64,000 bases of DNA from Vulcanimicrobiota bacterium (GCA_050250895.1 JBFWNU010000001.1:1416008-1480007), one strand, 5' to 3'. Counted from the stretch's first letter, positions 41,607 to 60,149 are shown. Made by a program: numbers and translations. Notes: generated by a model not told the origin, from the sequence alone.

Positions 41607-42935
41607 GTGAATGCACGTATCGTCTGTCGTTCCTGTGAGCGAGACGTCTTCGTCGAGGCCGCTACTGCTCTGGGATATCAGACAGGCGCCCACCATAACT
41701 GGGCAGAGCTGCTGATCCTTGATTTGCGAATCGCCGAGGCCGAAGCCCTGTGGGAAGAATATCTGAGGGCCGACCCGCCGGGTACTGTGGTGCTGCTCAC
41801 CGCTGACCGCGAGCGGTGTCTAGAGTTGCTACCGGACCTGCCCGGCAAGCCCGTGGATGTGTTGATTCCGCCCATCGAGTCCGACCGGGTCATTGCGCGT
41901 ATCGCTCGGCTGGGGCGTAGTCATCGTCCCGAGAGCTTTCTCGAGCAGTTGATCGAGCATATCCCCCACATGATTTTCGTCAAAGAGGCCAGTACGCTTC
42001 GCTTCGTCCACTTTAACGCGGCGGGCGAAAACTTGCTGGGCATTCCTCGAAGCGAACTCATCGGCAAACGCGATCAGGATTTCTTTCCCCCACACGAGAG
42101 CGATTTCTTCACCGAAAGGGATCGCGAAGTGATTGCCGGGGGTCGACCGCTAGAGATTCCCGAGGAGCCCGTCCAGACTCGCTTTGGCGAGCGCCTGTTG
42201 CGCACCATCAAGATTCCGATCCGTGATGCCCAGGGCCGTATCTGTTATCTGCTTGGCCTTTCCGAAGACATCACCGAGCAGAAACGGGCCGAAGAGGCTC
42301 TGCGCGGACTGCAAGCCCGCTTGCGTTCGGCCCAGGAGCGCGAGCGACTGTCGATCGCCCGCGAGGTTCACGACGAACTCGGCCAGCTGCTGACGGCCCT
42401 CAAGCTCGATATTGCCTGGCTCGAACGCCGATTCGAGAACGATATCGCCATTCGGGACAAGCTCGAAGGCATGACCGTGCTGGTCGACAGCACCATCGGC
42501 ACGGCCCGCCGCATCGCCCATAGCCTGCGTCCGCAGATCCTCGACGACCTGGGTCTGCTGGCCGGTCTCGACTGGTTGGTTCGCGAGATCTGCGAACGCG
42601 GTGGGGTTCGTTGTCAGGTCCATTGCGATTTTGGCGATGGTGAGCCCTCGGAGGACGTGCGAGTGGCTCTCTTTCGTATCTGCCAGGAAGCGCTGACCAA
42701 TGTGGTGCGTCATGCCCGGGCCACCCAGGCCGAAGTCACTCTCAAGGCGGTGTCGGGGTCGGTACGTCTGGTGGTAGAAGACAACGGGCAGGGGATTGCC
42801 AGCGAGAACCTCACCGGCGTCACTCTGGGTCTAGCCGGCATGCGCGAACGGGCCGAACTTTTCGGTGGCCAACTCACGATCGAGCCTGGGGCTCAGCGTG
42901 GCACCAGGCTCGAGGTCATTCTGCCTACATACTGA
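41607..42935 (+). CDS. Soluble PAS histidine kinase (HisKA_3) with degenerate N-terminal receiver
   Basis: AREVHDELGQ, LRPQILDDLGL, QEALTNVVRHA, DNGQG, GLAGMRER. Confidence 0.92.
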   Translation: MNARIVCRSCERDVFVEAATALGYQTGAHHNWAELLILDLRIAEAEALWEEYLRADPPGTVVLLTADRERCLELLPDLPGKPVDVLIPPIESDRVIARIARLGRSHRPESFLEQLIEHIPHMIFVKEASTLRFVHFNAAGENLLGIPRSELIGKRDQDFFPPHESDFFTERDREVIAGGRPLEIPEEPVQTRFGERLLRTIKIPIRDAQGRICYLLGLSEDITEQKRAEEALRGLQARLRSAQERERLSIAREVHDELGQLLTALKLDIAWLERRFENDIAIRDKLEGMTVLVDSTIGTARRIAHSLRPQILDDLGLLAGLDWLVREICERGGVRCQVHCDFGDGEPSEDVRVALFRICQEALTNVVRHARATQAEVTLKAVSGSVRLVVEDNGQGIASENLTGVTLGLAGMRERAELFGGQLTIEPGAQRGTRLEVILPTY

Positions 42936-45033
42936 CCATGGCCACCGAGTTGACGTTGACCTTCGGGGCGATTTCGTTCCAGCTGAGCAACACCAGGTTG
43001 GGGAAGGAGCGCTCGGTCAGTTTGCGCAAGGCCGGTCGCACGGGCGGCGAGGTCAGCAGAATCGGCTGCAAACCGCGCTCTTGCAGGCTTTGCACTTGAG
43101 CCGAGATAGCCTGTAGGATCTCTTGACCGACGTTGGGGTCGAGGGTCAAGAACGAGCCCTGTTCGGTTCTCTGGATAGCCGCCTGGATGGTCTGCTCGAT
43201 TCCCGGGTCGAGGGTGATGACGTTGATGGTTCCCTCGTTGTTCATGTACTCCTTGCAGATCGAGCGCGACAGCGAAACGCGGGCGAACTCGGTGAGCATC
43301 TCGGGATCCTTGGTCATGCCGACGTTGTCGGCCAGGGTTTCTAGAATCGACACCAGGTCACGGATAGAGACGCGTTCTTTGACCAGGTTCTGAAGCACCT
43401 TCTGGCATTCGCCCAGAGTAAGAGCATCGGGAATGACCTCTTTGACCACGGCCGGGTGGGTCTTCTTGATGGTGTCGATGAGAGCCTGAACTTCTTGGCG
43501 ACCCAGCAGCTCGCTGGCGTGGCTGCGAACCACCTCGGTCAACTGGGTGGCCACTACCGATACCGGGTCGAAGATCATACAACCGTAGCGCTCGGCGTCG
43601 CCGCGCTGTTCGGGCGAGATCCAGACGCCCGGCATTCCGTAGGTCGGGTCGACCGTCTTGATACCGCGCAGATTCTTGAGTTTGTCTTCAGGACCGATGG
43701 CCAGGAACTGGTTAACCTGGACCTCGCCCTGCGCGACCTCGATCTCTTTGATCTTGATGACGTAAGTGTTCGGTTTGAGCTGCAGGTTGTCGCGGAAACG
43801 CACGCCCGGAACCACGATACCGAGTTCCATGGCCACGTGACGGCGAATCGAGGTTACGCGTTCGAGCAGTTTGGCGCCCTGGTTGGGGTCCACCAGACTC
43901 AGCAGGCCACGACCGACCTCCAGCGAGATGGGGTCGACCTGCATCAATTGGACGACGCTCTCGGGCTTCTTGTTCTCTTTCTTCTTGGACTCTTGAACGT
44001 CTTGCTCGACCACTTCTTGAACGACTTCTTTGGACTTGGTCAAGACCACGCCGAAGTAGTAGAAGAATCCGCCGAGCACCAAAAAGGGGATCGGCGGGAA
44101 GGCTACCAGCCCGGTAAAGCCCAGCAGCGAGATCATGACCATAAAGCCGGCCGACAGCTTCATTACGTCGGGTCGGGCCGTGATCTGCTTGGCTAAGTCG
44201 TCACCGAGGTTGGAGTCCGAGGCGGCGCGGGATACCACCATACCCATCGAAGTCGACATCAGGAAGGCCGGCACCGTGGTCACCAGGCCGTTGCCGATGC
44301 TCAAAATAGCGTAGGTGTTAAGGGCGTCGCCGGCGCTCATTCCGTGATAGAGAATGCCGATCAAGATACCGCCCACGACGTTGACGATCATAATCACGAT
44401 CGACGCCATCGAGTCGCCTTTGACGAACTTACCGGCACCGTCCATCGAGCCGTAGAAGTCTGATTCGCGTTCGATTTGACGCCGCTTGAACTTGGCCTCG
44501 TCGGCGTTGATGGTGCCCGAGTGCAGGTCGGCGTCGATGGCCATCTGCTTACCCGGCATGGCATCGAGGGTAAAGCGGGCGGCCACCTGGGCGATACGCT
44601 CGGCACCGTTGGTGATGACCATCAGCTGAATGATGATGAGAATCAAAAACATGACGAAGCCGACTACCAGGTTGCCGCCGACCACGACCTTACCGAAGGC
44701 CGGAATCAGCCGGCCGGCACCGATGGGGTCGCCGGTTACAGGGTCTTTGATGTTACCGTAGAGCAGCACCATGCGGGTGGAAGACACGTCGAGAGCGAGT
44801 CGAAACAACGTCGCCACCAGCAACAAAGTTGGAAATACCGAGAATTCGAGAGGTTCTTCGATGTAGATCGAAATGAGGATGGTGATAATGGCCGAGGCGA
44901 TGTTGAGCACCAGCAACATGTCGAGCAGCTCGGGGGGCATCGGCACGATCAGCATGAACACGATGCCGATGACGCCGACCGCGGTGGCCACGTCCGAGAA
45001 CTTGAGTAGTTTAATTAAAGGATGGTCTTGCAC
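42925..45033 (-). CDS. flhA: Flagellar-type export gate protein
   Basis: ARFTLDAMPGKQMAIDADL, FYGSMDGAGKFVKGD, VDPTYG, ERVSIRDL. Confidence 0.97.
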   Translation of the reverse strand: MQDHPLIKLLKFSDVATAVGVIGIVFMLIVPMPPELLDMLLVLNIASAIITILISIYIEEPLEFSVFPTLLLVATLFRLALDVSSTRMVLLYGNIKDPVTGDPIGAGRLIPAFGKVVVGGNLVVGFVMFLILIIIQLMVITNGAERIAQVAARFTLDAMPGKQMAIDADLHSGTINADEAKFKRRQIERESDFYGSMDGAGKFVKGDSMASIVIMIVNVVGGILIGILYHGMSAGDALNTYAILSIGNGLVTTVPAFLMSTSMGMVVSRAASDSNLGDDLAKQITARPDVMKLSAGFMVMISLLGFTGLVAFPPIPFLVLGGFFYYFGVVLTKSKEVVQEVVEQDVQESKKKENKKPESVVQLMQVDPISLEVGRGLLSLVDPNQGAKLLERVTSIRRHVAMELGIVVPGVRFRDNLQLKPNTYVIKIKEIEVAQGEVQVNQFLAIGPEDKLKNLRGIKTVDPTYGMPGVWISPEQRGDAERYGCMIFDPVSVVATQLTEVVRSHASELLGRQEVQALIDTIKKTHPAVVKEVIPDALTLGECQKVLQNLVKERVSIRDLVSILETLADNVGMTKDPEMLTEFARVSLSRSICKEYMNNEGTINVITLDPGIEQTIQAAIQRTEQGSFLTLDPNVGQEILQAISAQVQSLQERGLQPILLTSPPVRPALRKLTERSFPNLVLLSWNEIAPKVNVNSVAMVSM

Positions 45034-45049
45034 GCTCGCTCCTTAGCCT

Positions 45050-46135
45050 CTACCGTCGTTTCTGTCTTCTCATCTGTCGTTTTCGCTTCAATTTTATGAC
45101 ATAGGCCAGAACTTCGGCCACCGCCTTGTAGAGCTCGGTGGGGATGGCCTGGCCCACTTCGCAGGCTCCGAACAGAGTTCGGGCCAGCTCGACGTTCTCT
45201 ACGATGGGCACATCGTGGTCTTCGGCCAGCACCTTGATCTGCTGGGCAATCAGCTTTTCGCCTTTGGCTACCACCGTGGGCACCGGCGATTCGTCCTTAT
45301 CGTATTTGAGCGCAATGGCCAGGTGGGTGGGGTTGGTGACCACCGCCGACGAGTTGGGAACCTCTTCCATCATGCGACCCTGCGAACCCTGGCGCATCAA
45401 CTGGCGCAGCTTGGCTTTGACCTGGGGGTTACCTTCGGTCTCTTTATACTCGTCTTTGAGTTCCTGGAAGCTCATCTTCATCTGCTTCATGAACTGCTTG
45501 TACTGAAAGGCGTAGTCGACCGCCGCGATGACGGTCATGCCGATCAAGACCTTCTTGACGATCTGCATGCAAATCGAAGTCACCAGTTGAGTGGTGGTGA
45601 GCAATTCCCAGTCGGCAGCCAGCATGAAGTTGGCCAGTTCTCCTTTGACCACCGACAGACAGATCCACCCCACGATCGTCAGCTTGGCGATCTGCTTGAA
45701 CAGCTCCATCAGCGACTTCATCGAGAAGATGCGCTTGAAGCCCTCGACCGGGTTGATCTTGTTGAGGGTGGGCTTGAGCGGCTCGAAGGTGAACAGCAGC
45801 TTGATCTGGGCCACGTTAGCGATGACTGCCATGATGAACACGCCCGCCAACAGGGGAGCCAGGGCAATAGCCACCGTGCCGACCCACCAGATCATCTCTG
45901 GCAGTAGCTCGCGCTCTTCGAAATTGTAATAAGGGATCTGCTCCCAGGCCTTTTTGGTAAAATCGGTGATGGTTTTCCACATGAAGCCACCGGCCGCATA
46001 CAGCATGCCGACGGCCGCCAGCAAGCCGGCGGTCGAAATGACCTCCTGGCTCTTCATCACCTGGCCTTTCTTGCGTTGCTCTTGAAGTTTATGTTCGGTT
46101 GGTTCTTCGGTTTTATCGCTATCCTGGCCACCCAA
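45050..46135 (-). CDS. flhB: Export switch protein
   Basis: KTEEPT, KETEGNP, intact NPTH autocleavage site. Confidence 0.97.
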   Translation of the reverse strand: MGGQDSDKTEEPTEHKLQEQRKKGQVMKSQEVISTAGLLAAVGMLYAAGGFMWKTITDFTKKAWEQIPYYNFEERELLPEMIWWVGTVAIALAPLLAGVFIMAVIANVAQIKLLFTFEPLKPTLNKINPVEGFKRIFSMKSLMELFKQIAKLTIVGWICLSVVKGELANFMLAADWELLTTTQLVTSICMQIVKKVLIGMTVIAAVDYAFQYKQFMKQMKMSFQELKDEYKETEGNPQVKAKLRQLMRQGSQGRMMEEVPNSSAVVTNPTHLAIALKYDKDESPVPTVVAKGEKLIAQQIKVLAEDHDVPIVENVELARTLFGACEVGQAIPTELYKAVAEVLAYVIKLKRKRQMRRQKRR

Positions 46136-46153
46136 AGCTGCCTCACCTCCTTT

Positions 46154-46954
46154 CTATTTTGGCGTTACTTCTCCGATAGTCCTGAAGACATCATCCAGAC
46201 AGATGTCGAACTGTTTTGTCAGCATGGTCAAAATGACCGGCAACCCGACCGAGAACATGGTCAAGCCGACGGCGATGTTGAGCGGGAAGCTCAACATGAA
46301 AACGTTCATTTGGGGGGCCACCCGGGCCAACAGCCCCAGCGCCACCTGAGTGATAAAGAGTGCGGCCAGCGCGGGCGAAGCGATCTGCAGGCCGATCACG
46401 AAGATCGAGGCGCTGATATCCACGAAGTGCGAGACCAGGTTTCCGTCGACGTTAAAGCCGGTCAGGGGCACGACCTCGAAGCTCTTGTAGATGGCGATCA
46501 TCAGCTGGTGATGGCCGTCGACCACGAGATAGAGCAGCATCGCGATGTAGAAATTCAGGCGCATCAGCAGTTTCGAGGCGCCGCCTGAGGAGGGGTCCAT
46601 GGAGGCGGCTACCGACAGACCCATCTGGATGTCCATCATTTCGCCGCCAAACTGAGCCGCCGCCATCACCGTAAACGAGGCGAACCCGATGGCCAGGCCC
46701 ACCACCAACTGAGTCAGGATGGCCAGAATAAAGCCCAGGGGCTCGGTGGGAAAATAGGCGGGAATGGGCAGATTGGGAAAGGCGACGATCGTCAACAGCG
46801 AGGCGATACCGATGCGCACCTTCGAGTTGTAGTGCTTACTACCGAAGATCGGGGCCTGAATCATCACCATCACGATGCGAGCAAAGGCTAGCAGCCCGCA
46901 CCCCAGTGCGATCCAGAGGACCTCGTTGATTTCGCGCTGTCCTGCCATGGCCAT
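46154..46954 (-). CDS. fliR: Export apparatus protein
   Basis: DIQMGL, DGHH, RVAPQMNVF. Confidence 0.95.
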   Translation of the reverse strand: MAMAGQREINEVLWIALGCGLLAFARIVMVMIQAPIFGSKHYNSKVRIGIASLLTIVAFPNLPIPAYFPTEPLGFILAILTQLVVGLAIGFASFTVMAAAQFGGEMMDIQMGLSVAASMDPSSGGASKLLMRLNFYIAMLLYLVVDGHHQLMIAIYKSFEVVPLTGFNVDGNLVSHFVDISASIFVIGLQIASPALAALFITQVALGLLARVAPQMNVFMLSFPLNIAVGLTMFSVGLPVILTMLTKQFDICLDDVFRTIGEVTPK

Positions 46955-46960
46955 CGTGCG

Positions 46961-47260
46961 TTACCCCGATGGTCCTATGCTGCCCACGTCGGTAAAGATG
47001 CGGATGGCGTAACTGCTGACCATGTTGGCAATCCAGGTTCCGCAGACCACCAGCGAGAGGAACGTGGCCACGATCTTGGGCACGAACGACAGGGTCTGTT
47101 CCTGTACCTGAGTCGTGGCTTGCAAGATACTGATAAATAGACCGACTGCCAGAGCCGACATCAACATGGGGGCAGAGAGGATCAAGATGAGATACAATGC
47201 CTCCGTACAGATCTCCATGATGTAGGCATCTGTGAACATCTCTTCAGCGAATATCAGCAT
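46961..47260 (-). CDS. fliQ: Export apparatus protein
   Basis: QATTQVQEQTLSFVPK. Confidence 0.96.
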   Translation of the reverse strand: MLIFAEEMFTDAYIMEICTEALYLILILSAPMLMSALAVGLFISILQATTQVQEQTLSFVPKIVATFLSLVVCGTWIANMVSSYAIRIFTDVGSIGPSG

Positions 47261-47305
47261 GTCGTTTCCTCCCTTCTTGAAAAATAGTCAACCAACGAGC
47301 CGCAC

Positions 47306-48106
47306 CTATGGAGGCATGTTCTCCATGTGGAAGCTCTTGACCAGGCCTTTGATGATCAGGTGCCAACCGTCGATCATGACGAACAGCAACAGTTTGAACG
47401 GCAAAGAGATGGTCATCGGGCTGAGCATGAACATACCCATCGACATCAGCACCGAGGCCACAATCATATCGATGACCAGAAATGGCAGATAGAGCAAGAA
47501 GCCGATCTCGAAGGCGGTCTTGATCTCGGAGAGCACGAAAGCCGGCAACAGAACGTAGATGGGCGCGTCGTTGCGCGACTCGACCTTCTGTTGAGACAGT
47601 TCCAGGAAGAGGATCAGGTCCTTGTCGCGGCACTGCAACAGCATGAACTGTCGGGGCGGGGTAGTCAGCTTGACCATGAACTCTGGCTGCTCCATGGTGC
47701 CGGCCAGATAGGGCTGGATGGCCTCCTTGTTCATCTTGATCCCGACCGGGGCCATGACGTACATGGTGATGAAGAGCGCCAGGCCCATCAACACCTGGGT
47801 AGACGGCACCTGTTGCGTGCCCAGGGCGGTGCGCAAGAAGCTCAGCGTGATGGTCGTCCTGATGAAGGCGGTGCTCATGATCAGGATGTACGGGGCCAAC
47901 GTCAAGGTGGTCAGGAAGAACATGACCTGCAGGAACGATGAGGTCTTGGCTCGTTCGTCCTGGTTGGCTCCGTCGATGGTGATCTTGGGCATCTCGATGC
48001 TGGGGAACTCGTTCTGGGCCTCGACCGGAGAGTAGGCGCCGATCAGACCCACCAGCACCACGGCCAGGAGGAGAATGCCCAACCAGCGGCCGGTTCGAGC
48101 GCTCAT
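47306..48106 (-). CDS. fliP: Export apparatus protein with signal peptide
   Basis: ALGTQQVP, PAFVLSEIKTAF, MGMFMLSP, LPFKLLLF. Confidence 0.97.
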   Translation of the reverse strand: MSARTGRWLGILLLAVVLVGLIGAYSPVEAQNEFPSIEMPKITIDGANQDERAKTSSFLQVMFFLTTLTLAPYILIMSTAFIRTTITLSFLRTALGTQQVPSTQVLMGLALFITMYVMAPVGIKMNKEAIQPYLAGTMEQPEFMVKLTTPPRQFMLLQCRDKDLILFLELSQQKVESRNDAPIYVLLPAFVLSEIKTAFEIGFLLYLPFLVIDMIVASVLMSMGMFMLSPMTISLPFKLLLFVMIDGWHLIIKGLVKSFHMENMPP

Positions 48107-48762: not shown

Positions 48763-49031
48763 TTCATCAATTCGGTGATCCGAACTCCGTAATTTCCCTC
48801 GATCTCTACTACTTCGCCCCTGGCGATGAGGGTCCCGTTGACCACCAGGTCGACGGGGTCGTTGCCGTCTTTGTCGAGTTCGATCACCGCTCCCTCACCG
48901 AATTTCAACACGTCACGCACGCTCTTGGTGGTTCGCCCCATCTCGGCTTCGACGATAAAAGGCACGTCGTAAAGGATGGTAAGATCTTCCCTTTTCTTGG
49001 GCCGTTGAGGCTGTGCGTTGTAATCTTCCAC
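48759..49031 (-). CDS. fliN: C-ring SPOA protein, second copy
   Basis: DVPF..EMGRT, GAVIELDK, ARGEVV, YGVRITE. Confidence 0.93.
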   Translation of the reverse strand: MEDYNAQPQRPKKREDLTILYDVPFIVEAEMGRTTKSVRDVLKFGEGAVIELDKDGNDPVDLVVNGTLIARGEVVEIEGNYGVRITELMN

Positions 49032-49333
49032 TATTTCACAATCTCCGTGATGCGAACGCCATACTGACCATCGATCTCGACCACCTCGCCCCGAGCGATG
49101 GCCTTATTGTTGACCAGAATGTCGACCGGCTCACCGATTTCCTTGTCGAGTTCGACCACCGAGCCCACCTGCAGGCGCAGAATATCCCGCACCAGGCGGC
49201 GGGTCTTGCCCAACTCAGCCTGGACTACCAGAGCGACGTCTTTGAGCAGATCGATCGTGTTGGCGTTGGCCCCCTCGGCCACGCTGCCCTCGAGCTGGCC
49301 GAATTGAACCGCTCGGGGTCCTTGATCACTCAT
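49031..49333 (-). CDS. fliN: C-ring SPOA protein, first copy
   Basis: IDLLKDV, ELGKT, GSVVELDK, ARGEVV. Confidence 0.95.
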   Translation of the reverse strand: MSDQGPRAVQFGQLEGSVAEGANANTIDLLKDVALVVQAELGKTRRLVRDILRLQVGSVVELDKEIGEPVDILVNNKAIARGEVVEIDGQYGVRITEIVK

Positions 49334-50309
49334 CGTATTCTTCGTCTCCCTCTTGCAGAACTCGGTTGATCTTGGCAGCCAGCCGACCGTCTTTGATGCC
49401 GGGCTGGCCGAGAAACTTGGTCTTGTTGTTGACCTTGATTCGCAACGGGTCGCGAATCTCTGAATCCAGGCGGATGGTGTCGCCTACCTCGATGGTTAGC
49501 AGCTCTTGAAAGAGCAGTTCGGCGCGGCCCAAACTGACAGAAACCGGCACTTTGGCATTGTGGATGTGCTCGGGAAAGATGATTTTATCATCTTTGGGCG
49601 CCTGGAAGGTGGTGGTCAGCATGAACTCGTCAAACGACCGCTTGGGGATCATCTCTTTGAGATAGCGGAAAGGCACGCAGACGTTGATCAGGCCTTGAGC
49701 CTGGGCCACATCGACCTGGAAGGCGGTCACCACCATCGTCTCGGAGGGGGCGCAGATATAGACGGCATTGGGGTTGAACTCGAGGCTTTGAAACTGGGCC
49801 TCGACCTGGCCGACATCTTTCCAGGCGTCGCCAAAAGCCGATAGCATACGGCCCAGCGGTTTCTTCAGGATGGCCTTCTCGAGATCGGTAAAATAGGGTC
49901 GCAGCTCTTCTCGCGGGGGAGCGCCCTTGCCACCCATCAAGCGCTCGAAGATGGCAAAGGAGAGGTCGAAATCGATGTCGATGAAGCCCGAGGTGTTGTC
50001 ATTGAGGCGGAAGACCAGCACCGGGGTGGGCTCGGGCAAGGAATTCAGGTAGGAGTGGTAGGGAAAGGTCTTGAGCTTGATCAGCTCCATCTGGAAACGC
50101 GACTGGAGCAGGGGAGCCAACTGGGTGACCACCGCCTCGGAAAAGCCCACGAAAATCTTCTCCAGAAAGCGGTTCTGGTCTGAGGTGAATTTTTCGGTCT
50201 GACGAAAGTCAAAGGTGCTGGCACCCTGAAACCGCTGCCGCTGAGCTGCTCTCATCGCTTGGTCGAATCTTCCGCCATTTCCCAATTTCTCTCGGCCCTC
50301 CACGGGCAA
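49326..50309 (-). CDS. fliM: C-ring protein lacking the CheY-binding peptide; exact start uncertain
   Basis: FDFR..KF, LMGGKG, FTDLE, EFNP, SPOA C-terminus; no LSQxEIDALL. Confidence 0.93.
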   Translation of the reverse strand: MPVEGREKLGNGGRFDQAMRAAQRQRFQGASTFDFRQTEKFTSDQNRFLEKIFVGFSEAVVTQLAPLLQSRFQMELIKLKTFPYHSYLNSLPEPTPVLVFRLNDNTSGFIDIDFDLSFAIFERLMGGKGAPPREELRPYFTDLEKAILKKPLGRMLSAFGDAWKDVGQVEAQFQSLEFNPNAVYICAPSETMVVTAFQVDVAQAQGLINVCVPFRYLKEMIPKRSFDEFMLTTTFQAPKDDKIIFPEHIHNAKVPVSVSLGRAELLFQELLTIEVGDTIRLDSEIRDPLRIKVNNKTKFLGQPGIKDGRLAAKINRVLQEGDEEYDE

Positions 50310-50429
50310 TCGGACCCCCGTCCGCTACCCTACGACTCCCCCATTCGTCCGGATTCGTCGAGGGAGCGAGGTACCCTGGTTTTAACTCTCGCTTTTGGGC
50401 CGACAGCGAGACCAGGTTAGAGTCAGAAG

Positions 50430-50492: not shown

Positions 50493-51308
50493 CTATCGAA
50501 CCAGACCGAGAGCGGACTGGGTGAGCTTGTCCATAGCCCGGAAGGAGGCCATGTTGGCTTCGAAATTCTGCTTGGTCATGCCGATAGCAGCACCTTCTTG
50601 CATGAAGTCGACGTTAGAGAGTTCGAGGCTGCCGGGAGCGATGCTGCCCAGCGCACCCTGGCCGGCCACCCCGATGACGGCGCCGCCCGAATCGGCCGAC
50701 TCGACAAAGCTGGTGGTTCCCGAGCGCTCGAGCGACCCGGCGTTGGCGAATGAGGCCACGGCGGTTTGATAGATGGGAGTGGTGGTGGTGATCTGCTGCC
50801 CCGTGACGGGGTCGGTCATGGTGGCTTCACCATAGAGCTTACCGGTGTCGTCGAAGTGGAAGCCAGTGTATTTTCCGCCGTAAAGATTGGTGTTGGGATC
50901 GAGAGTCAACTCGATCGGCTTGGAGTCGCCCGAGATGTTGCCCTGCGAGTCGAGGGGGAAGCCCATCACCGACTTGCCCATCGCGTCTTTGAGCGAGCCG
51001 TCTTGCCAGGTGAAGCGACCGTCGCGGGTGTAGTGGTTCTGGAAGCCGTCGTTGACCACGAAGAACCCCTGACCGTTGATGGCCAGGTTGGTGTTGGTTT
51101 GGGTTTTGAAAATCTGGCCCTGATCGAAGGAGACGTTGTTTTTCTTGACTTTGGCGCCGCCAGCCAGGGTCGAACTCATAATGTCGTTGAACTGGACCAC
51201 TTCGGCCTTGTAGCCGGGAGTAAACTGGTTCTTGATGTTCTCGAATCGGCTCTGCAGAATCTCCTGGTTTTGAGCCATGTTGTTGGCAGCGTAGTTAAAA
51301 TCAAACAT
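50493..51308 (-). CDS. Short hook/distal-rod family axial protein (FlgE/FlgG-like, no D2 domain)
   Basis: TPGYK, NLAINGQGFF, YTRDGRF, LELSNVD; 271 aa; occupies the flgE position. Confidence 0.9.
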   Translation of the reverse strand: MFDFNYAANNMAQNQEILQSRFENIKNQFTPGYKAEVVQFNDIMSSTLAGGAKVKKNNVSFDQGQIFKTQTNTNLAINGQGFFVVNDGFQNHYTRDGRFTWQDGSLKDAMGKSVMGFPLDSQGNISGDSKPIELTLDPNTNLYGGKYTGFHFDDTGKLYGEATMTDPVTGQQITTTTPIYQTAVASFANAGSLERSGTTSFVESADSGGAVIGVAGQGALGSIAPGSLELSNVDFMQEGAAIGMTKQNFEANMASFRAMDKLTQSALGLVR

Positions 51309-51383
51309 TCGAAATGGTCCTCTCCTTATTTCAACCCTGTGGTGCGGGGCTGTCCCGCTGTTTCTTTCCTACAAAATTCCTCG

Positions 51384-51443
51384 ATTTTAGAGTAACCGAG
51401 GGCAGTTACATGGGCGTTACCGGCCTGTTAACGAAAAGTTAAC
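51384..51443 (-). promoter_or_regulatory. Internal phased-repeat promoter of the flgE-like gene
   Basis: Minus strand GTTAAC, GTTAAC, GGTAAC, TGTAAC starting at 51443, 51432, 51421, 51410; -10 TACTCT at 51394 overlapping TAAAAT at 51389. Confidence 0.75.
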
Positions 51444-51452
51444 CTACTCGAC

Positions 51453-52388
51453 TCAAACAACCTCCTCGACCAGCTTGACTCGCATCGCTTCCAGGCGAAT
51501 GCCCTTGGCTTTCACCTGGGAGAGAAGTTCTTCTTCGCTCTCTTCAAGCAGCTCGCGAGTGGCCCGCGAAGTGGTCTGGAACTCGGCCCGAATACCCTTT
51601 TCGTCGTGAACAAGCGAAATTTTGACATCGCCGAGGTACTCGGGATTGAGCTTGAGGTTGAGTTCGGTCTGGTTGGCCAGATTGCGTACCTCGACATGCG
51701 CCAGGATCTGATTCATCAGGTTCTGGCGCTGCTCAGCTCGCTGGGCTTCGCCCGTCTTGCCGGCTTCCCGGGTCTTCATCGCCTCTTCGGCCAGCATCTG
51801 CTCGAGACGACCACCGGAGTTCGTATTGCCCGAGGCGGCCAGCTGCTCGTTGCTGGTCTTTTGCTCTTTGCCGTCGGCCTCGCGCAGCAGCGAGTCGATC
51901 AGGCGCGAAAGCTGGTTGCGGTCGGTCTGATTGGTCAGCTGGGTCAACTGCGAGTAGGACAGGTCCTTGAGGTTGAGGCCCTTGCCCAGCAGCATTTTCT
52001 GCAGCTCGGAGAGGCCCACCTTGTCCATCGAAAATTCGCCCAGCTTGAAGGCCTGGCGTTCGGCCGTGGACATCGTAGAAGGGTCCTTGTAGGCCAGCGT
52101 CTCGAGATAGGCCTGGAGCTTGGCCCCACCCTTGAGTTGCTCGGGCTTGGCCTCGACTTTGGCTTCGGCCTTAGCAGCTTCTTTGGCGTCTTCTTTGCCT
52201 TTCTTGGCTTTGTCTTCTTTGTCGGGCGCAGCCTTGTCGTCGATGACGCCTTCTTTGCCGCCGCCGCCCGATTGGACCGCGTCATTCATTGCCGAGCTGA
52301 AAGCCCCGGCGTCGCCCTTGTCGGTTTTCTTGCTCGTCTCACTGGCTTTGGTCGTGCCCATGAGTGAGCCGATGACTGGGTTGTCCAC
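51453..52388 (-). CDS. fliK: Length-control ruler protein
   Basis: Disordered charged N-terminus; C-terminal T3S4 motif LKLNPEYLGDVKISL. Confidence 0.85.
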   Translation of the reverse strand: MDNPVIGSLMGTTKASETSKKTDKGDAGAFSSAMNDAVQSGGGGKEGVIDDKAAPDKEDKAKKGKEDAKEAAKAEAKVEAKPEQLKGGAKLQAYLETLAYKDPSTMSTAERQAFKLGEFSMDKVGLSELQKMLLGKGLNLKDLSYSQLTQLTNQTDRNQLSRLIDSLLREADGKEQKTSNEQLAASGNTNSGGRLEQMLAEEAMKTREAGKTGEAQRAEQRQNLMNQILAHVEVRNLANQTELNLKLNPEYLGDVKISLVHDEKGIRAEFQTTSRATRELLEESEEELLSQVKAKGIRLEAMRVKLVEEVV

Positions 52389-52396
52389 CGTGCCTC

Positions 52397-53041
52397 CTAG
52401 ATGCTCTGTCCGTGGTTGGAACTGTAGTAACGATAGTTGTCGAGAACCTTGGCTACGTAATCTTGCGTTTCTTGATAGGGAGGAACGCCGCCGTGCTTTT
52501 CGACTGCACCGGGACCGGCGTTATAACCGGCGATGACTTTGGTCAGGTTGCCGTCGAAGCGGTCCATCAATTGGCGCAGATAGAGGGTGCCGCCCATGAT
52601 GTTCTGATAGGGATCGTAGGAGTCGGTCACTCCCAGCCCGGCAGCCGTCTCGGGCATCAATTGCATCAAGCCCTGGGCGCCTACATAAGAGGTGGCCTTG
52701 GGGTTATAGGCCGACTCTTGCTTGATGACCGAGCGAATCAGGGCCTGATCCACACCGTGTTTCTTCGAGGCCTCGGCGATCATGCCATCAAAATCCTTCG
52801 AGTCGCCATTCCAACGGTTGGCGTTGAGTTTGGCCGGGCCCGAACGAGCGTCATAGCGCTGATCGTCGGCCAGAGAATTGACCAGGCTCTCGAAGGTCAC
52901 CCCTTCGTTGCCGGCCGGCGCGCCGCTGGTCAGATTGGTCTGGCCGGCGTTGGACTGAAATCCGGCTCGCCCTCCCTCGAGTTTCGAATCGAGTTGGGCG
53001 ATCTTCTTCTCGATCGCGGCCATTCTATTGAATACTGACAC
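52397..53041 (-). CDS. SLT lytic transglycosylase without Sec signal
   Basis: QESAYNP, GAQGLMQLMPET, YNAGPG, ETQDYV. Confidence 0.95.
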   Translation of the reverse strand: MSVFNRMAAIEKKIAQLDSKLEGGRAGFQSNAGQTNLTSGAPAGNEGVTFESLVNSLADDQRYDARSGPAKLNANRWNGDSKDFDGMIAEASKKHGVDQALIRSVIKQESAYNPKATSYVGAQGLMQLMPETAAGLGVTDSYDPYQNIMGGTLYLRQLMDRFDGNLTKVIAGYNAGPGAVEKHGGVPPYQETQDYVAKVLDNYRYYSSNHGQSI

Positions 53042-53052
53042 GATGTTCCTCC

Positions 53053-53526
53053 CTATCGCTCTTCGGCTGCTTCGCGTGCCTCACGGGCAAACTTGATGGT
53101 CGCTAGTTCGTCGATCAGACGGGCCTCGACAGCGTCCATCTCGGCCACCCATTCCTCCTGGCACTTTTCCTTGTGTTTTTCGTAGACTTTCTTCTCTTGA
53201 GCCGCCTTCAGTAGAGCTTTCCTCTGCTCTATGATTCTAATGGCTAGCTCTCGTAGACGCAACTCCTGGCTTTTTATTTTGTTCTCTAGATTCTTGATGT
53301 GGGCGGGGTAGAAGCGTAGTTCTTCCATGTTGAGGCTGCCGCTCAGGTGCTTGGTTTTGAGCGTCAGGCGGACATCCCTCAACGTCTGTTCGAGCTGGGC
53401 TTTGACCTGCTTTTCGTAAGCCTCTTGCTCGAGCAGCTTGGCCAGCTTTTCTTTCTCTTCTTCCTCTCGCTTGACTTTGAACTCGAGTACCTTCTCGAGT
53501 CGATACTTGAACTTTTTCGGCGGCAC
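53053..53526 (-). CDS. fliJ: Export ATPase stalk
   Basis: FKYRLEKVL, coiled coil, IDELA; directly after fliI. Confidence 0.88.
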   Translation of the reverse strand: MPPKKFKYRLEKVLEFKVKREEEEKEKLAKLLEQEAYEKQVKAQLEQTLRDVRLTLKTKHLSGSLNMEELRFYPAHIKNLENKIKSQELRLRELAIRIIEQRKALLKAAQEKKVYEKHKEKCQEEWVAEMDAVEARLIDELATIKFAREAREAAEER

Positions 53527-54845
53527 TAGTCTTTGAAGATCCTTCTCAGGTGATCCATCATTTCGTCAAAGGTGCTTTGCTCGTGGATGCCTTGTTTGAG
53601 AAAGGCGGCAATGGCGTCGTTCTTGGCGATAGCATAGTCGACCTTGGGGTTGGAGCCGCGCTGGTAGGCGCCGATGTTGATCAGGTCTTCGTTCTCGCGG
53701 TAGGTGGCCATGGCGTTGCGCAGGCGCCCGGCCAGCTCTTGATGCTCTTTGGTGGCGACTTCGGTAAATACACGAGAGACCGACTGCAGCACGTCCACGG
53801 CCGGATACATATTCTTGTGGGCGATCTTACGCGACAAGACGATGTGGCCGTCGAGAATACCACGAACCGCATCGGCGATCGGCTCGTTCATGTCGTCGCC
53901 GTCGACGAGCACGGTGTAGACAGCGGTGATCGTTCCCTTGGGGGAGGTGCCGGCCCGCTCCATCAGCTTCGGCAAGAGGGCAAAGCAAGAAGGCGTATAG
54001 CCTTTGGTAGCGGGAGGCTCCCCGATGGCCAGTCCGACTTCGCGCTGAGCCATGGCAAAACGCGTCACCGAGTCCATCATCAGCATCACGTTGTAACCCT
54101 GGTCGCGGAAGAACTCAGCCACCGCCGTGCCTGTGTAGGCGGCCTTGAGGCGCACCAGGGCAGGCGTGTCGGAGGTGGCCACCGCCACCACCGAGCGCTT
54201 CATGCCTTCTTCGCCCAGGTCGCGCTCGAGAAAGTCACGCAACTCACGGCCACGCTCGCCGATGAGGGCCAGCACCGCAATGTCGGTTTCGGAAAAGCGC
54301 GCGATCATGGACAGGGTGGTCGATTTACCGACGCCCGAACCGGCGAAGATTCCTACACGTTGGCCGCGGCCGAAGGTCAGGGTCGAGTCCAGCACGCGAA
54401 TGCCCATCGAGATGCGCTCTTCGATGCGCGGTCGGGTGATCGGGTTGGGTGGCGTGTTGTAGATGGGATACTCCTCTTCGCAGTCGAGGGGACCCAGGCC
54501 ATCGATCGGTTCGCCCAGACCGTCGAGTACGCGCCCCAAGAGTCCCCAGCCCACCTTCACCATGAGCGGCTTGCCCGTCGAGCGAACCTCGCATCCCGGG
54601 CCGATGCCACCCATCTCGCCCAGGGGCATGAGCTGGACCCGGTTGGCTTTGAAGCCTACCACCTCGGACCGGATGGAGCGTCCCTCCTGGTCATAAATGT
54701 AGCATAGCTCACCCAGTCGCACGGCCGGTCCCTCGGACTCGATGGTCAGGCCGATGACCTGCACCACTCTGCCGTGCTGCTTGATAGTCTGGATGCGAGG
54801 CAATATCTTTTCGTAGCGGCTAAAATCGACGGCTAACTCAGCCAT
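53526..54845 (-). CDS. fliI: Export ATPase
   Basis: AGSGVGKST, GERGRE, DSVTRFA, LDGHIVLSR; start at MAELAVDF. Confidence 0.97.
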   Translation of the reverse strand: MAELAVDFSRYEKILPRIQTIKQHGRVVQVIGLTIESEGPAVRLGELCYIYDQEGRSIRSEVVGFKANRVQLMPLGEMGGIGPGCEVRSTGKPLMVKVGWGLLGRVLDGLGEPIDGLGPLDCEEEYPIYNTPPNPITRPRIEERISMGIRVLDSTLTFGRGQRVGIFAGSGVGKSTTLSMIARFSETDIAVLALIGERGRELRDFLERDLGEEGMKRSVVAVATSDTPALVRLKAAYTGTAVAEFFRDQGYNVMLMMDSVTRFAMAQREVGLAIGEPPATKGYTPSCFALLPKLMERAGTSPKGTITAVYTVLVDGDDMNEPIADAVRGILDGHIVLSRKIAHKNMYPAVDVLQSVSRVFTEVATKEHQELAGRLRNAMATYRENEDLINIGAYQRGSNPKVDYAIAKNDAIAAFLKQGIHEQSTFDEMMDHLRRIFKD

Positions 54846-56049
54846 TCTCTTCCTCCTGCGAGAACTCGGGCTCGGCCTCGAACTCGGGCTCGGGGGTGAA
54901 TTCTTCTTCGGGTGCAAAATCGGGCTCTTGAGGGGTAACCTCTTCGAGCCCCTGGAAGTCGGGGTCGCCGGGGACCTCGACCGGTTCGGTGGCGGCCTGG
55001 TTGGCGAGTTCTTCTTCGCGCAGTTTGGCCATCTCTTCCATGCCGTGGCGAATCGCATCGAGCTGAGTATGTAATCTGGCGTCGATGTTGCCCAGGTTGG
55101 TCTCGATGGTGCAGCCGCCCGGATCGATGGTCGGATCGGCCACCACCTCAAAGCTCTTGAGCCCTTCGACCATCCGCTCGAAGCTGGCGCGATGATCGCG
55201 TACGATCTGCACATCTTGCGGGTTGACCCGGATCGAGACCTCCTCTCGGTCCTTGATGGCGCCCAGTGCCTGGCGCACGATGGCTAGAATGACCTCGGGG
55301 TCGACCTTGATGGCTTCGCCTAGCACCCGCTCGGCGATCTTGACCGCCAACCGGGCGAGTTCGGGCTCGACCGTGGCCACGATGGCCCGCCGGGCCCGCA
55401 CGGCCTGAACATACATATCCTTGGCCTGGGCAATCCGCTCGACGAACTCGCCCACCGAGGCGTTGTAGCCCTGCTGATGGCCGGCCTGTAGGCCTTCTTG
55501 ATAACCACGCTCGCGAGCCTGCTCTTCGGCCTGCTGGGCCGCCTGCTGGGCCTGCGTGGCCGTCTGCTGCATGTAGTGCTGGGCCTGGGCCTGAGCTTCT
55601 TGCAGCATCTGCTGGGCTTTCATCCGGGCCTGCTCGAGGATCTGCTCGTCGATGGGCGGACCCTTCTGCACCTCTTCTTCGGGCTCTTCCAGGTCTTCGT
55701 CGTCAAACTCGAGTTCGATGGGATCGGGCTGGGGTGGGGCCGGCGGCCGATCGCCGCCCACGATCAGCGTCTGGGTCAGCGGATTGAGGGTGCTCGGCTT
55801 GGTCTCGACCCTCGGCTTGCCACCGATGACACGGCCGGTGCTCTCGACCCTGGGCGGGCTGACCAGCGTCTGCTCGAAGGGAGGCTCCGGCTCGGGTTCG
55901 GGTTCTTCGTCGTCGCGCTCGAGCTGGGTGGGATGCATGGGAGCAAAGCTCTGCCCCTCGGCGTTGTCACGGTGCCGATACAGGTTCGACGAGGGAGCGG
56001 CGGGTTTTTGCTCTACGCTTTCTCCCTTTTTGCGCTTGATGAGTGCCAC
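54838..56049 (-). CDS. fliH: ATPase regulator with long acidic Pro-rich extensions
   Basis: GYQEGLQAGHQQG repeats, IRVNPQD, GGCTIETNLGNIDA. Confidence 0.9.
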   Translation of the reverse strand: MALIKRKKGESVEQKPAAPSSNLYRHRDNAEGQSFAPMHPTQLERDDEEPEPEPEPPFEQTLVSPPRVESTGRVIGGKPRVETKPSTLNPLTQTLIVGGDRPPAPPQPDPIELEFDDEDLEEPEEEVQKGPPIDEQILEQARMKAQQMLQEAQAQAQHYMQQTATQAQQAAQQAEEQARERGYQEGLQAGHQQGYNASVGEFVERIAQAKDMYVQAVRARRAIVATVEPELARLAVKIAERVLGEAIKVDPEVILAIVRQALGAIKDREEVSIRVNPQDVQIVRDHRASFERMVEGLKSFEVVADPTIDPGGCTIETNLGNIDARLHTQLDAIRHGMEEMAKLREEELANQAATEPVEVPGDPDFQGLEEVTPQEPDFAPEEEFTPEPEFEAEPEFSQEEENG

Positions 56050-56058
56050 AAGCGGCTC

Positions 56059-57060
56059 CTATTTGAACTTGATCTTGCCCAGGGTCACCAACCCCCTGAG
56101 GATGTTGCGAATCTGCTGTTGGGCGGCCTTGGTTTCGTCGAAGGGCACCTGGCCCAGACTCTCGACATCGTCGCGCAGAGCCTTGGCCACCTCGGGCGAG
56201 AGGAAGCGATAAATGCGCTCGGCCAGGTCCTTGTTGGCACCCTTGAGGGCCAGCACCAGGTCGCGAAAGTCGGTCAACCGCAGCACCTGCTGCAGCGAGT
56301 TGTCGTCAATATTGTTGAGGTCTTCGAAGTCACACAGCTTGGTCTTGATGTCGCTGGCCAGCCGCGGGCTCTTCTGAGTCAGCCCGGAGAGCACGCTGGC
56401 TTCGGTGCCGCGGTCCGCCTGGTTGAGAATCTGCAGCAACGTTTCCTTGCCATCGCTATGGCTTTGGAAGCCCTCCTCGAGCGCCTTGTGCAGGCGGCCC
56501 TCGAGAATCTTCTCGAGTTCAGAGACTACCTCGCTCGAAACGTGGCCAAGCTCGGCCAACCGCTTGGCCACCTCGGTCTGGGTGGTCGGCGTGAGTTCGC
56601 CGAGCACCGCCGAGGCCTGGTTGGAGTCTAGATAAGACAAGACCACGGCGATGGTCTGCGGGTGCTCTTTGCGGATCAGATGGATCAGTTGGCGCGGATC
56701 GACTTTGCGTAAGAAGCCCAGCGGACGATTGGCCGCCGCACCGGGCGGGCCGCCCATGGTCGGCGGCATCGACTTGCTGCCCATCATGGGCTGGGTGAAA
56801 GCTGCGTGGGCCGGAGCGGTCGGCGCCGAGCCGCCTCCGCCGGAGGACTGAAGAAATTCTTCGATGACTTGAGCTCGGATCTCGGGGGAGATCTGAGGCA
56901 GCTTCGAGATCTCGAGAGTGATGGCCTGAACTTCTTCGGGGCCGAGTTCTCGAAACAGTTGCGCCGAGACCTCGGGAGGGAGCGACATCAGCAAGATAGC
57001 CGCTTTCTGCTTAGGAGGCAGGTTGCTGGTCGAAATGGCCTTCCACTTTCCTTTCTGCAT
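56059..57060 (-). CDS. fliG: Rotor/C-ring protein with degenerate torque helix
   Basis: KAAILL, EHPQ, LALKG; NMSxR replaced by FLSPE, GPVR by GQVP, MFxF by LCDF. Confidence 0.95.
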   Translation of the reverse strand: MQKGKWKAISTSNLPPKQKAAILLMSLPPEVSAQLFRELGPEEVQAITLEISKLPQISPEIRAQVIEEFLQSSGGGGSAPTAPAHAAFTQPMMGSKSMPPTMGGPPGAAANRPLGFLRKVDPRQLIHLIRKEHPQTIAVVLSYLDSNQASAVLGELTPTTQTEVAKRLAELGHVSSEVVSELEKILEGRLHKALEEGFQSHSDGKETLLQILNQADRGTEASVLSGLTQKSPRLASDIKTKLCDFEDLNNIDDNSLQQVLRLTDFRDLVLALKGANKDLAERIYRFLSPEVAKALRDDVESLGQVPFDETKAAQQQIRNILRGLVTLGKIKFK

Positions 57061-57116
57061 GGTTGCGCCCCGGGACAGGCCCGAGGCGCAATTCCATCAT
57101 ATCGAAGTCTGGTCGA

Positions 57117-58790: not shown

Positions 58791-58865
58791 AGTTTCTCCT
58801 CTCCTACCTACCGGCGCTCTCTCTCTGTTTTAGCGAGCGCCGCTCCTTACCCCTCGCGAACTTTC

Positions 58866-59216
58866 TTAGAGCTGCATCTGGAACAGCTGAGTGGTGGCTT
58901 GGGCCATCTTGCCCACCACGGTGGTGGTCAGCTTCATCATCACCTCGGCCTTGGCGCCGGCGATGGTCATCTCGTGCAGGCCGTCCATGTTGCCGCTCAA
59001 CAGGTTGTTGGTCGACTTGATGGAGCCGTCGATGGTCGTGTTGACGGTGTTGAGGCTCTCAGCCAGCACGGCGCCGAAGGCTTTACCGTTTTCTTCGGAC
59101 TGACCGGGCTGCTCGATCATTTTCGGCATGCCGATGCCGGAGATCGGGGAACCGGTGGTTCCGATGCCGCTTACGCCGGAAGTGATACCCTGAATGGATT
59201 GAAAGGGGGACTGCAT
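58866..59216 (-). CDS. fliE: Basal body adaptor
   Basis: FGAVL, LHEMTIAGAKAE, C-terminal MQL. Confidence 0.9.
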   Translation of the reverse strand: MQSPFQSIQGITSGVSGIGTTGSPISGIGMPKMIEQPGQSEENGKAFGAVLAESLNTVNTTIDGSIKSTNNLLSGNMDGLHEMTIAGAKAEVMMKLTTTVVGKMAQATTQLFQMQL

Positions 59217-59227
59217 AATCTTACTCC

Positions 59228-59710
59228 TTAGCCTTTACCGATCTCGAGAGCTTTCATCGCCATCGCTTTCGCCGATTCGATGGTGGTTGCGTTAGCCTCG
59301 TAGGCGCGACTGGCGGCCATCATCGAGGTCATTTCTTGAATGATGTTGACGTTGGGCATCGCGACGTAGCCTTTGCGATCACCCTCCTTTTCGGCGTTGG
59401 GATTGGTGGGGTCGTAGACCCAGCGGAAGTCGCTATTGTCTTCCATAATCCCGTTGACGCCGACACCGCCGCCCGAGAAGTTGACTTTGTTGTTGAAGTC
59501 GAACTCGCCGTCCATCGAGGCAGTGGTGAACGCCTGGTCGAACATCTCGGCCTGCTTGGCATTGATCACGGCAACCTGACGGCGGTAAGGATCTCCGTCT
59601 TCGGTTTTCGAGGTGTTCGCGTTGGCGATGTTGTTGGACACCACATCCATACGGAACTGCTCGGCGCGCATTCCGCTGGCTGCAATATCGAAGGTCTGGA
59701 AGAATTTCAT
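59228..59710 (-). CDS. flgC: Proximal rod protein
   Basis: SNNIANANT, PYRRQ, GYVAMPNV, ASRAYEAN. Confidence 0.97.
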   Translation of the reverse strand: MKFFQTFDIAASGMRAEQFRMDVVSNNIANANTSKTEDGDPYRRQVAVINAKQAEMFDQAFTTASMDGEFDFNNKVNFSGGGVGVNGIMEDNSDFRWVYDPTNPNAEKEGDRKGYVAMPNVNIIQEMTSMMAASRAYEANATTIESAKAMAMKALEIGKG

Positions 59711-59729
59711 CTAGTCTGCCTCTCTCGTC

Positions 59730-60149
59730 TTATCGACCGCTGTTTTCGACAACCCACTTCAGGGAGCCGTAGATGCCCGAGATCTTCGAAGCCAGAGCGT
59801 TATACATAATCTGGTTCTTGGCCAGACTGGCCATCTCGGAGTTGACATCCACCTTACCGCCCACATCTTCGATGGTGGGCTGCAGGCTGGCTTTGGTCCA
59901 ACCGCCGGCGCCATCAATGGCGAACTCGGGGTCGACTACTCCGGCGGGGCTGAAATCGGTGTCAGAGCCGGCGGCCTCGTCATTGTCCATCGCTTCGCGC
60001 AGATGATTCTCGAAAGCAACGGTCTGGGCTGTGTAGCCCTCGGTATTGACATTGGCCATGTTGTTCGAGATGACTTGCTGGCGCAGCGTGGCCGCACCGA
60101 TAGCCTTCTCTAACAGCGTTGTGTCAACAAGTTGAAACGGCTTCCCCAA
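59730..60149 (-). CDS. flgB: Proximal rod protein
   Basis: RQQVISNNMANVNTEGY, VDVNSEM, NQIMY; AGGAGG RBS and TTG start. Confidence 0.95.
   Translation of the reverse strand: MGKPFQLVDTTLLEKAIGAATLRQQVISNNMANVNTEGYTAQTVAFENHLREAMDNDEAAGSDTDFSPAGVVDPEFAIDGAGGWTKASLQPTIEDVGGKVDVNSEMASLAKNQIMYNALASKISGIYGSLKWVVENSGR

Follow-up and report, generated by a model that had tools for sequence, protein, structure and literature searches.

Within a 64,000-nucleotide stretch of the genome of a Vulcanimicrobiota bacterium (GCA_050250895.1, JBFWNU010000001.1:1416008-1480007; herein the window), a cluster of 20 flagellar-type genes running from flgB to flhA probably encodes a static, flagellum-derived basal body with a type III export apparatus, separate from the ordinary flagellum; we put the probability of this reading at roughly 0.6. 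An earlier reading of the DNA (the original prediction) had described the cluster as a flagellar basal body without motor or chemotaxis input, distinct from the injectisome and repurposed for secretion or contact, possibly in predation or host interaction. That interpretation is partly supported here, namely in what it denies: motor, filament, and chemotaxis input are all lacking, and the system is not an injectisome. Secretion, contact, predation, and host interaction are putative roles.

Gene content and order of the cluster

The 20 open reading frames (ORFs) lie on the minus strand at 42925-60149; none has an internal stop, and most neighbors abut or overlap. Their Pfam identities match the earlier listing in 20 of 20 cases (Table 1), which bears out both the gene order and the intactness of the frames. 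Intergenic gaps longer than 75 bp number only two, one of 144 bp between fliK and the gene for a short FlgE-like protein and one of 237 bp between that gene and fliM. Neither would accommodate flgD or fliL, and no flgD, fliL, cheY, or flhF/flhG was found in the window cluster. The original prediction had taken flgD, fliL, and flhF/flhG to be missing from gaps devoid of genes, and the gaps agree with this; the first holds a hairpin and a GTTAAC-N5-GTTAAC repeat. The FlgE-like protein matches TIGR03506 above cut-off, and its nearest solved structures are FlgE chains (1.8e-14), followed by FlgG (6e-9) and FlgF.

Families diagnostic of an injectisome (secretin, SctD, a SctJ-only ring, needle proteins) were matched above the Pfam cut-off by none of the 20 ORFs, the whole genome not having been searched for secretin. 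Matches to SctI, YscO, and HpaP stayed below threshold and stood beside stronger flagellar assignments.

The SLT-family lytic transglycosylase encoded between fliJ and fliK has a domain-level match, below cut-off, to NF047373 (flagellar assembly lytic transglycosylase), and its hydropathy profile shows no hydrophobic N terminus. Because of this missing N-terminal segment, the enzyme is probably exported by the machine itself, in the manner of FlgJ-like self-export by the flagellar machine.

A second locus and a separate flagellum in the same genome

The genome that contains the window (G000; 9.5 Mb, 99.6% complete) carries the window on a contig of 3.9 Mb (C1). Two further regions of this contig, near 120-130 kb and 545-595 kb, make up a complete canonical flagellar set comprising flagellin and an FlgL-like gene, two MotB (C1:128227 and C1:578375), a 599-residue FlgE with an FlgG, and the only FlgD, FlgH, and FlgI of the genome. 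It has its own FlhA, FlhB, FliR, FliQ, FliP, FliI, FliF, FliG, FliM, FliN, and FlgC, which are 24-52% identical to their counterparts in the window; FliL was not found anywhere in G000. The original prediction had considered that a complete set might lie elsewhere without a second canonical fliG. The set that does lie elsewhere has a canonical fliG of its own, and G000 therefore encodes two separate systems. As the other system includes L and P rings, the cell must have an outer membrane.

The window system extends beyond the window, into a conserved second locus (G000:C1:1289951-1294728). The operon there encodes FlgF and FlgG together with a FliK-like protein and a sigma factor of the FliA/WhiG family (match to TIGR02479 above cut-off). 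It is conserved in G000 and in a relative without flagellin (G017), the FliK-like protein measuring 485-523 aa across the two. A regular expression for the sigma-28 consensus found no match in the window.

Distribution across the class and the phylum

Two samples were searched, one of 41 genomes of the same class and one of 151 genomes of the phylum. Window-type FlhA (71-100% identity, some copies cut by contig ends) is present in 40 of the 41 class genomes; the best FlhA of G010 is 63% identical to that of the window. Across family f3 (19 genomes of 1.9-4.7 Mb) the window type is the sole full-length FlhA. Flagellin occurs in 8 of the 41 genomes, and FlgD, a second full-length FlhA (43-46% identity), and MotB_plug matches at E <= 1e-11 occur in the same eight, with weak MotB_plug matches in G035 and G039. 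Among the 33 class genomes without flagellin, 27 encode exactly four Flg_bbr_C proteins, which by size and position are FlgC, the FlgE-like protein, FlgF, and FlgG; FlgC and the FlgE-like protein lie in the cluster and the FlgF/FlgG pair elsewhere. Most of these genomes have a single C-terminal FliG domain (FliG_C). FlgI, FliD, and FliS were each found above cut-off in none of five flagellin-less genomes (G017, G019, G021, G023, and G002), and a profile search of G017 (96% complete, 20 contigs) found no MotA/ExbB-family gene.

The FlgE-like gene was found in 64 of the 151 phylum genomes and in none of the 71 genomes of family f15. As we take f15 to be the family of the cultured Vulcanimicrobium, described as having no flagella and no flagellin (PMC9758169), Vulcanimicrobium is not an example of the system. 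Flagellin accompanies the FlgE-like gene in 20 of the 64 genomes, and the same 20 have strong MotB_plug matches; in the other 44, MotB_plug is unmatched in 41 and weakly matched (27-29 bits) in three (G060, G064, and G067). The contrast is visible within a single genus (g20 of family f12, 41-42% GC), in which G053 has flagellins and two full-length FlhA, while its congener G047 has no flagellin and window-type FlhA only. Since flagellin, FlgD, strong MotB matches, and a second FlhA co-occur in a minority of genomes, the filament, hook cap, and stator travel with the other flagellar system and not with the window-type cluster, which is the widespread one. The description of the apparatus as lacking motor, chemotaxis, and filament, already fitting a cluster without stator, filament, or hook cap genes, is strengthened by this distribution in flagellin-less genomes.

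Gene order is identical in G017, G040, G053, and G047: in each, the SLT gene separates fliJ from fliK, and the next gene after fliK is the FlgE-like one. The order is preserved across families spanning 41% to 61% GC. Such recurrence in distant relatives indicates that the order is not due to chance. A separate search for related loci listed 80 of more than 600 candidates. One partial contig (L018) reaches 71% identity and the others all fall short of 50%; as close relatives are not among these 80, the list says nothing about range.

The nearest named relatives of the G000 RpoB come from Candidatus Eremiobacterota and Candidatus Xenobia (both 75%) and from Candidatus Bruticola (67%), and relatives of the FlgE-like protein are labeled Eremiobacteraeota, Vulcanimicrobiota, or Armatimonadetes by their sources. 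Going by these source-given labels, the phylum is probably Eremiobacterota.

Copy number varies in some relatives. Five genomes of genus g2 (G002, G004, G008, G010, and G012) have further full-length FlhA, 62-66% identical to that of the window, and FlgE-like paralogues in frames of 469-501 aa; the reduced system may thus exist there in a second copy, duplicated or variant. An apparent tandem duplication of fliG within the cluster is seen at G032:C41:9213-11387, where two FliG_C matches adjoin in frames of 335-340 aa.

Diagnostic residues

Five charges of the torque helix of Escherichia coli FliG, which we take to be K264, R281, D288, D289, and R297, were compared by alignment. Two are replaced in the window FliG (R281 by E, R297 by P) and three retained, and LCDF stands opposite the E. 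coli MFLF. The original prediction that FliG had lost exactly its torque residues therefore stands for R281 and R297 and fails for K264, D288, and D289. The pattern is fixed in 25 window-type FliG from five families: all 25 have K264, D or E in place of R281, S or P in place of R297, and D or E at the position of D289, whereas the D288 position varies (D in 12, N in 5, E in 3, A in 3, T in 1, and G in 1). The other FliG of G000 has all five charges.

The CheY-binding motif of the LSQxEIDxL type is missing from all 24 window-type FliM, while an N terminus of the LSQxEIDALL type is present in FliM of E. coli, of Bacillus velezensis, and of the second copy in G000. The window-type FliM is thus predicted to be unable to take CheY-P through the usual peptide, in line with the proposed loss of switching input. 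Look-ups of FliM in the protein Atlas returned generic FliM clusters only, and other look-ups gave unnamed clusters.

The export parts had been called canonical. FlhB retains NPTH at residue 268 and FliI its GSGVGKS P-loop. In FlhA, the counterparts of E. coli D208, D456, and T490 are conserved, whereas F459 is replaced by Y; these positions presumably form the chaperone-docking site.

Phylogeny, selection, and expression

A tree of 98 FlhA-family sequences was built by a quick LG+G4 search with SH-aLRT support; it comprised 12 window-type FlhA, the other FlhA of G000, 79 from named genomes, those of E. coli and B. velezensis, and four SctV. Sequences of at least 600 aa came from 89 of 90 loci; two loci were omitted, L018 (partial, <600 aa) and L088, which is the locus of the window itself. 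The four SctV split from the rest with a branch support of 100, leaving the window type on the flagellar side. All 12 window-type FlhA group in a single clade (support 100, stem 0.5); the remaining 81 FlhA make up another (support 96), and the window type lies outside it. Because the search gave long-branch warnings, we restrict the claim to window-type FlhA being flagellar, distinct, and not SctV. Together with the lack of injectisome families in the cluster, this upholds the view that the system is not an injectisome.

The cluster is under strong purifying selection. In five genome pairs, the ratio of nonsynonymous to synonymous substitution rates (dN/dS) of cluster genes was 0.00-0.28; four of the pairs include at least one flagellin-less genome, and several dS values are near saturation. 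The FlgE-like gene gave 0.00-0.06 and fliM 0.016-0.054; fliK had the highest values (at most 0.28), and flhA gave 0.038 between G000 and G001. For fliG they were 0.018-0.075, with 0.012-0.042 over its last 110 codons.

One could take the cluster for the decaying and now functionless remnant of a lost flagellum. Many flagellar genes are indeed missing, and such remnants are reported in nonflagellated bacteria (PMC7688988). The low dN/dS values strongly disfavor decay, as do the 20 intact ORFs, the identical gene order across families at 41% to 61% GC, and the coexistence of the cluster with a complete flagellum in 20 genomes; we consider this explanation very improbable.

The strong constraint on the C-terminal domain of FliG indicates that it still has a constrained job, which might be thought to be motion. 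The organelle would then still serve motility or force generation, moved by a stator other than MotAB and acting through an unrecognized filament or a periplasmic hook-like fiber. Such a role would suit the retention of K264 and of the acidic residue at D289 in 25 of 25 orthologues, the presence of FliK rulers and a hook-like protein in addition to the complete rod, and the one to three MotA_ExbB proteins of ExbB/TolQ size found in most flagellin-less genomes. It is hard to square with G017, which has the cluster and no MotA/ExbB-family gene at 96% completeness, with the joint lack of matches to flagellin, FliD, FliS, FlgD, FlgI, and junction proteins, with the charge reversal at R281 and loss of R297 in all 25 FliG, and with a FliM that offers no input for CheY. 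On balance a motile organelle appears quite unlikely.

Contigs from RNA libraries, found in all four runs of one study, match the cluster at 95-99% identity and cover 20-27 of 30 bins of window positions 42000-61000; the longest (2486 nt) spans fliK, the SLT gene, and fliJ. Uncovered bins (e.g., 42634-43267) carry no weight. RNA libraries can contain DNA, and the coverage was read without a silent control region. The shares of the sequencing runs were small (0.05-0.18) and point to no particular habitat.

Proposed apparatus

In the static export apparatus that we favor, the window cluster and the second locus would together supply an MS ring (FliF) and a C ring (FliG, FliM, and two FliN). The cluster would contribute the export gate (FliOPQR, FlhB, and FlhA) and the ATPase complex (FliHIJ), and the two loci combined a full rod (FliE, FlgB, FlgC, FlgF, and FlgG), a lytic transglycosylase that has no signal peptide, a pair of FliK-type rulers, and a short FlgE-like tip. 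Missing from the window-type system itself are the stator, FliL, the hook cap, the junction, the filament with its cap and FliS, the L/P ring, and FlhF/G. Assembly would proceed as for a flagellar basal body, with no rotation. The apparatus would export its own axial parts and then switch to late substrates: the system still has FliK, a sigma-28-type factor, the NPTH of FlhB, and the docking residues of FlhA, which suggests that the early-to-late switch is retained, and a retained switch in turn suggests late substrates other than flagellins.

Several points weigh against this reading. The absences come from hidden Markov model searches of mostly draft genomes, several of them 96-98% complete. 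No secreted substrate, chaperone, or outer-membrane conduit was identified for the system, secretion being argued by inference, and without FlgD and L/P rings both the polymerization of the FlgE-like protein and its exit from the periplasm are open to doubt. No part of FliG is more constrained than FliG_C, which retains K264 and D289, in many cases also D288, and must still bind something; an unrecognized force generator may act on it. The position of the window-type clade outside the other 81 FlhA may be an artifact of a quick search with long branches. The RNA-library contigs give a weak hint of expression, coming as contigs from one study and from a relative 95-99% identical. Finally, the name of the taxon depends on the names attached to the RpoB relatives.

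Repeats, paralogues, and feature coordinates

The GTTAAC-N5-GTTAAC repeat occurs in eight copies in the 9.5 Mb genome against 0.017 expected, other spacings giving 0-2. Two of the eight lie in the two promoter regions of the cluster; the repeat recurs in the same fliK/flgE-like gap of G040 and, in degenerate form, in G017. Uncharacterized proteins (462, 129+508, and 885 aa) are encoded downstream of other copies, as is a 109-residue protein with a secretin-N0-like domain (weak Pfam match). Such uncharacterized downstream proteins (L126, L127/L128, and L131) may be cargo or components of the system. The 885-residue protein (L131, G000:C5:258942-261599), 3' of a repeat, has no Pfam family and is found in 38 of the 41 relatives, including small genomes.

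At least seven G000 proteins contain, of FlhA, only the cytoplasmic domain (FlhA_C), and some are fusions: one to FliG_N (1001 aa), others to FlhB_C or to an XRE-type helix-turn-helix domain. The soluble type represented by L106 (461 aa) has no transmembrane-like N-terminal segment, its sole hydrophobic stretch lying inside the FlhA_C domain. Full-length relatives of soluble FlhA_C are present in at least 59 of the 151 genomes, all 59 in cluster-bearing families, and there are none in f15, f20, or f21 among the matches listed; relatives in f13 have up to 15 FHIPEP matches. The FlhA_C paralogues and the GTTAAC repeats may belong to the window system.

These paralogues also bear on another view of the cluster, as a structural or regulatory device that exports only its own rod and tip; it might mark the pole or the envelope, for example, or regulate type IV pili. 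The soluble FlhA_C family, with its helix-turn-helix fusion, hints at signaling, no cargo was found for the window system, and components of the FT3SS (the type III secretion system of the flagellum) are reported to control twitching motility in Lysobacter enzymogenes (PMC7688988). The T3S4-type domain of FliK, the FlhB NPTH, the FlhA docking residues, and the FliA/WhiG sigma factor instead fit, albeit indirectly, switching to late substrates, and we think a purely structural or regulatory device unlikely.

Lone paralogues elsewhere in G000 include a third full FliF (L114, 527 aa, G000:C2:554979-556562), a 203-residue YscJ/FliF-family protein with a hydrophobic N terminus (L115, C1:1835144-1835755), a 137-residue protein with FliG_N only (L113, C2:81306-81719), and a 127-residue FliG_C-like ORF (C12:101379-101762).

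Divergent from flgB lies a conserved ORF of 151 aa. No Pfam or NCBIfam family was matched; a collection of 5.8 billion proteins holds 15 relatives, and alignment of the family with E. coli FlgM and FlgN (hhalign) gave a probability of 0.1. Other genes of the window include a subtilase with a MAM-like domain (261-2504), a T2SS-F/PilC-like gene followed by a 528-residue ORF without family (11271-12650), a circularly permuted ATP-grasp/Alpha-E fusion (25990-28389), and a metallo-beta-lactamase-fold protein with a cNMP-binding domain (38073-40259).

Table 1. Coordinates of the cluster genes and associated elements (window positions; entries with a contig prefix refer to contigs of G000)
Feature	Position	Strand	Basis or remark
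flgB, proximal rod, 139 aa	59730..60149	-	PF00460
flgC, proximal rod, 160 aa	59228..59710	-	PF00460 + PF06429
fliE, 116 aa	58866..59216	-	PF02049
fliF, MS ring, 557 aa	57117..58790	-	PF01514 + PF08345
fliG, 333 aa, N + M + C domains	56059..57060	-	Pfam; E. coli R281/R297 aligned with E/P
fliH, 403 aa, long Pro/Glu-rich N terminus	54838..56049	-	PF02108
fliI ATPase, P-loop GSGVGKS	53526..54845	-	likely start = residue 124 of 562-aa ORF
fliJ, 157 aa	53053..53526	-	PF02050
SLT-family lytic transglycosylase, 214 aa, between fliJ and fliK	52397..53041	-	PF01464
fliK, hook-length control, 311 aa, C-terminal Flg_hook domain	51453..52388	-	PF02120
GTTAAC-N5-GTTAAC repeat, fliK/flgE-like gap, adjoins GCCGGTAA element	51427..51443	.	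motif scan
Terminator-like hairpin 3' of fliK	51379..51401	-	
Short FlgE-like axial protein, 271 aa, D1 + C-terminal rod/hook domains	50493..51308	-	PF22692 + PF06429
fliM	49326..50255	-	likely start = residue 19 of listed ORF; without CheY-binding N-terminal peptide
fliN copy 1, 100 aa	49031..49333	-	PF01052
fliN copy 2, 90 aa	48759..49031	-	PF01052
fliO, 219 aa	48103..48762	-	PF04347
fliP	47306..48106	-	PF00813
fliQ	46961..47260	-	PF01313
fliR	46154..46954	-	PF01311
flhB, NPTH at residue 268	45050..46135	-	PF01312
flhA, 702 aa	42925..45033	-	PF00771
GTTAAC-N5-GTTAAC repeat 5' of flgB, divergent promoter region	60280..60296	.	motif scan
Conserved 151-aa ORF, divergent from flgB	60503..60958	+	same position in G017 and G040
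Other GTTAAC-N5-GTTAAC copies	C1:1894643, C1:2117777, C1:2798242, C3:51389, C4:760431, C5:258874		
FlhA_C-only proteins	L106 C6:529281-530666; L107 C1:2473604-2476609; L108 C1:1126937-1128244; L109 C1:2013805-2014935; L110-L112		

Significance

The injectisome is the textbook conversion of a flagellum into a secretion machine. A tentative extension of the favored reading, which we hold to be possible but doubtful, is that the window-type systems are a third lineage of type III machines, an old and phylum-wide independent conversion of a flagellum to a static export or contact apparatus. Such a lineage would have retained FliG, the rod in its entirety, and a tip resembling a hook, and would have gained a lytic transglycosylase encoded within the operon, a dedicated sigma-28-type factor, an operator made of GTTAAC repeats, and soluble FlhA_C paralogues; those fused to FliG_N, FlhB_C, or a helix-turn-helix domain could sort cargo or give feedback. 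If true, the flagellum would have been converted a second time, independently and with less derivation, and comparison would reveal the repeatable steps, among them the loss of stator, filament, and chemotaxis input and the recruitment of a lytic transglycosylase, and it would offer a natural intermediate.

For tools that work by rules, TXSScan among them, core genes suffice to call a flagellum. By such rules these organisms would be scored as flagellated or motile, although most are without flagellin and stators. The lineage includes large-genome members proposed to be predatory (PMC9259500), and an unrecognized organelle for export or contact could matter for the ecology of large-genome and small-genome relatives alike.

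Comparison with known systems

The fla/che-type order that the original prediction had used as its reference agrees with that of B. velezensis (NZ_CP083716.1), which reads flgB, flgC, fliE, fliF, fliG, fliH, fliI, fliJ, a MotE-family gene, fliK, flgD, flgG (in the hook position), flbD, fliL, fliM, fliY, cheY, fliZ, fliP, fliQ, fliR, flhB, flhA, flhF, minD/parA, cheB, and cheA. The window cluster shares the order from flgB to flhA and the flagellar core families, with FliG, rod proteins, and FliK present. In contrast to the Bacillus operon, it is without flgD, flbD, fliL, cheY, flhF, flhG, and che genes, the SLT gene takes the place of the MotE-family gene, and two FliN replace FliY. The gene at the hook position of the Bacillus operon encodes only 258 aa, so that shortness at this position does not by itself signal reduction; its product is only 29% identical to the window FlgE-like protein. 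Compared with the Bacillus flagellum, R281 and R297 of FliG are replaced, FliM is without the CheY peptide, and no flagellin, cap, junction, or stator gene lies alongside.

Literature on Eremiobacterota, Armatimonadota, and relic flagellar export contained no description of the window system, within the library searched; two reports concern ordinary flagella of Armatimonadota (PMC5629041 and PMC10290634). The closest precedent is the FT3SS of L. enzymogenes OH11, a nonflagellated predator that lacks functional flagellin and is reported to show FliI-dependent secretion of nonflagellar proteins (PMC7688988). Both systems keep flagellar export genes intact without flagellin, here in 33 of 41 relatives and 44 of 64 phylum genomes. 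Lysobacter keeps and secretes FlgD, which was not found in the flagellin-less genomes here. The window type further differs from the Lysobacter system in being a streamlined operon across most sampled families of a phylum, known from genes alone, in sometimes standing beside a full flagellum, and in its fixed FliG and FliM changes.

Like the injectisome, the window-type system has a flagellum-derived type III core, no flagellin filament, no motor, and an associated SLT-family enzyme; unlike the injectisome, it retains FliG, FliE, FlgB, FlgC, FlgF, and FlgG. Buchnera carries flagellar basal bodies without filament, proposed to be exporters, as the remnant of a reductive endosymbiont. The window type, unlike that remnant, occurs widely among free-living lineages whose genomes are large, and sometimes stands beside a working flagellum.

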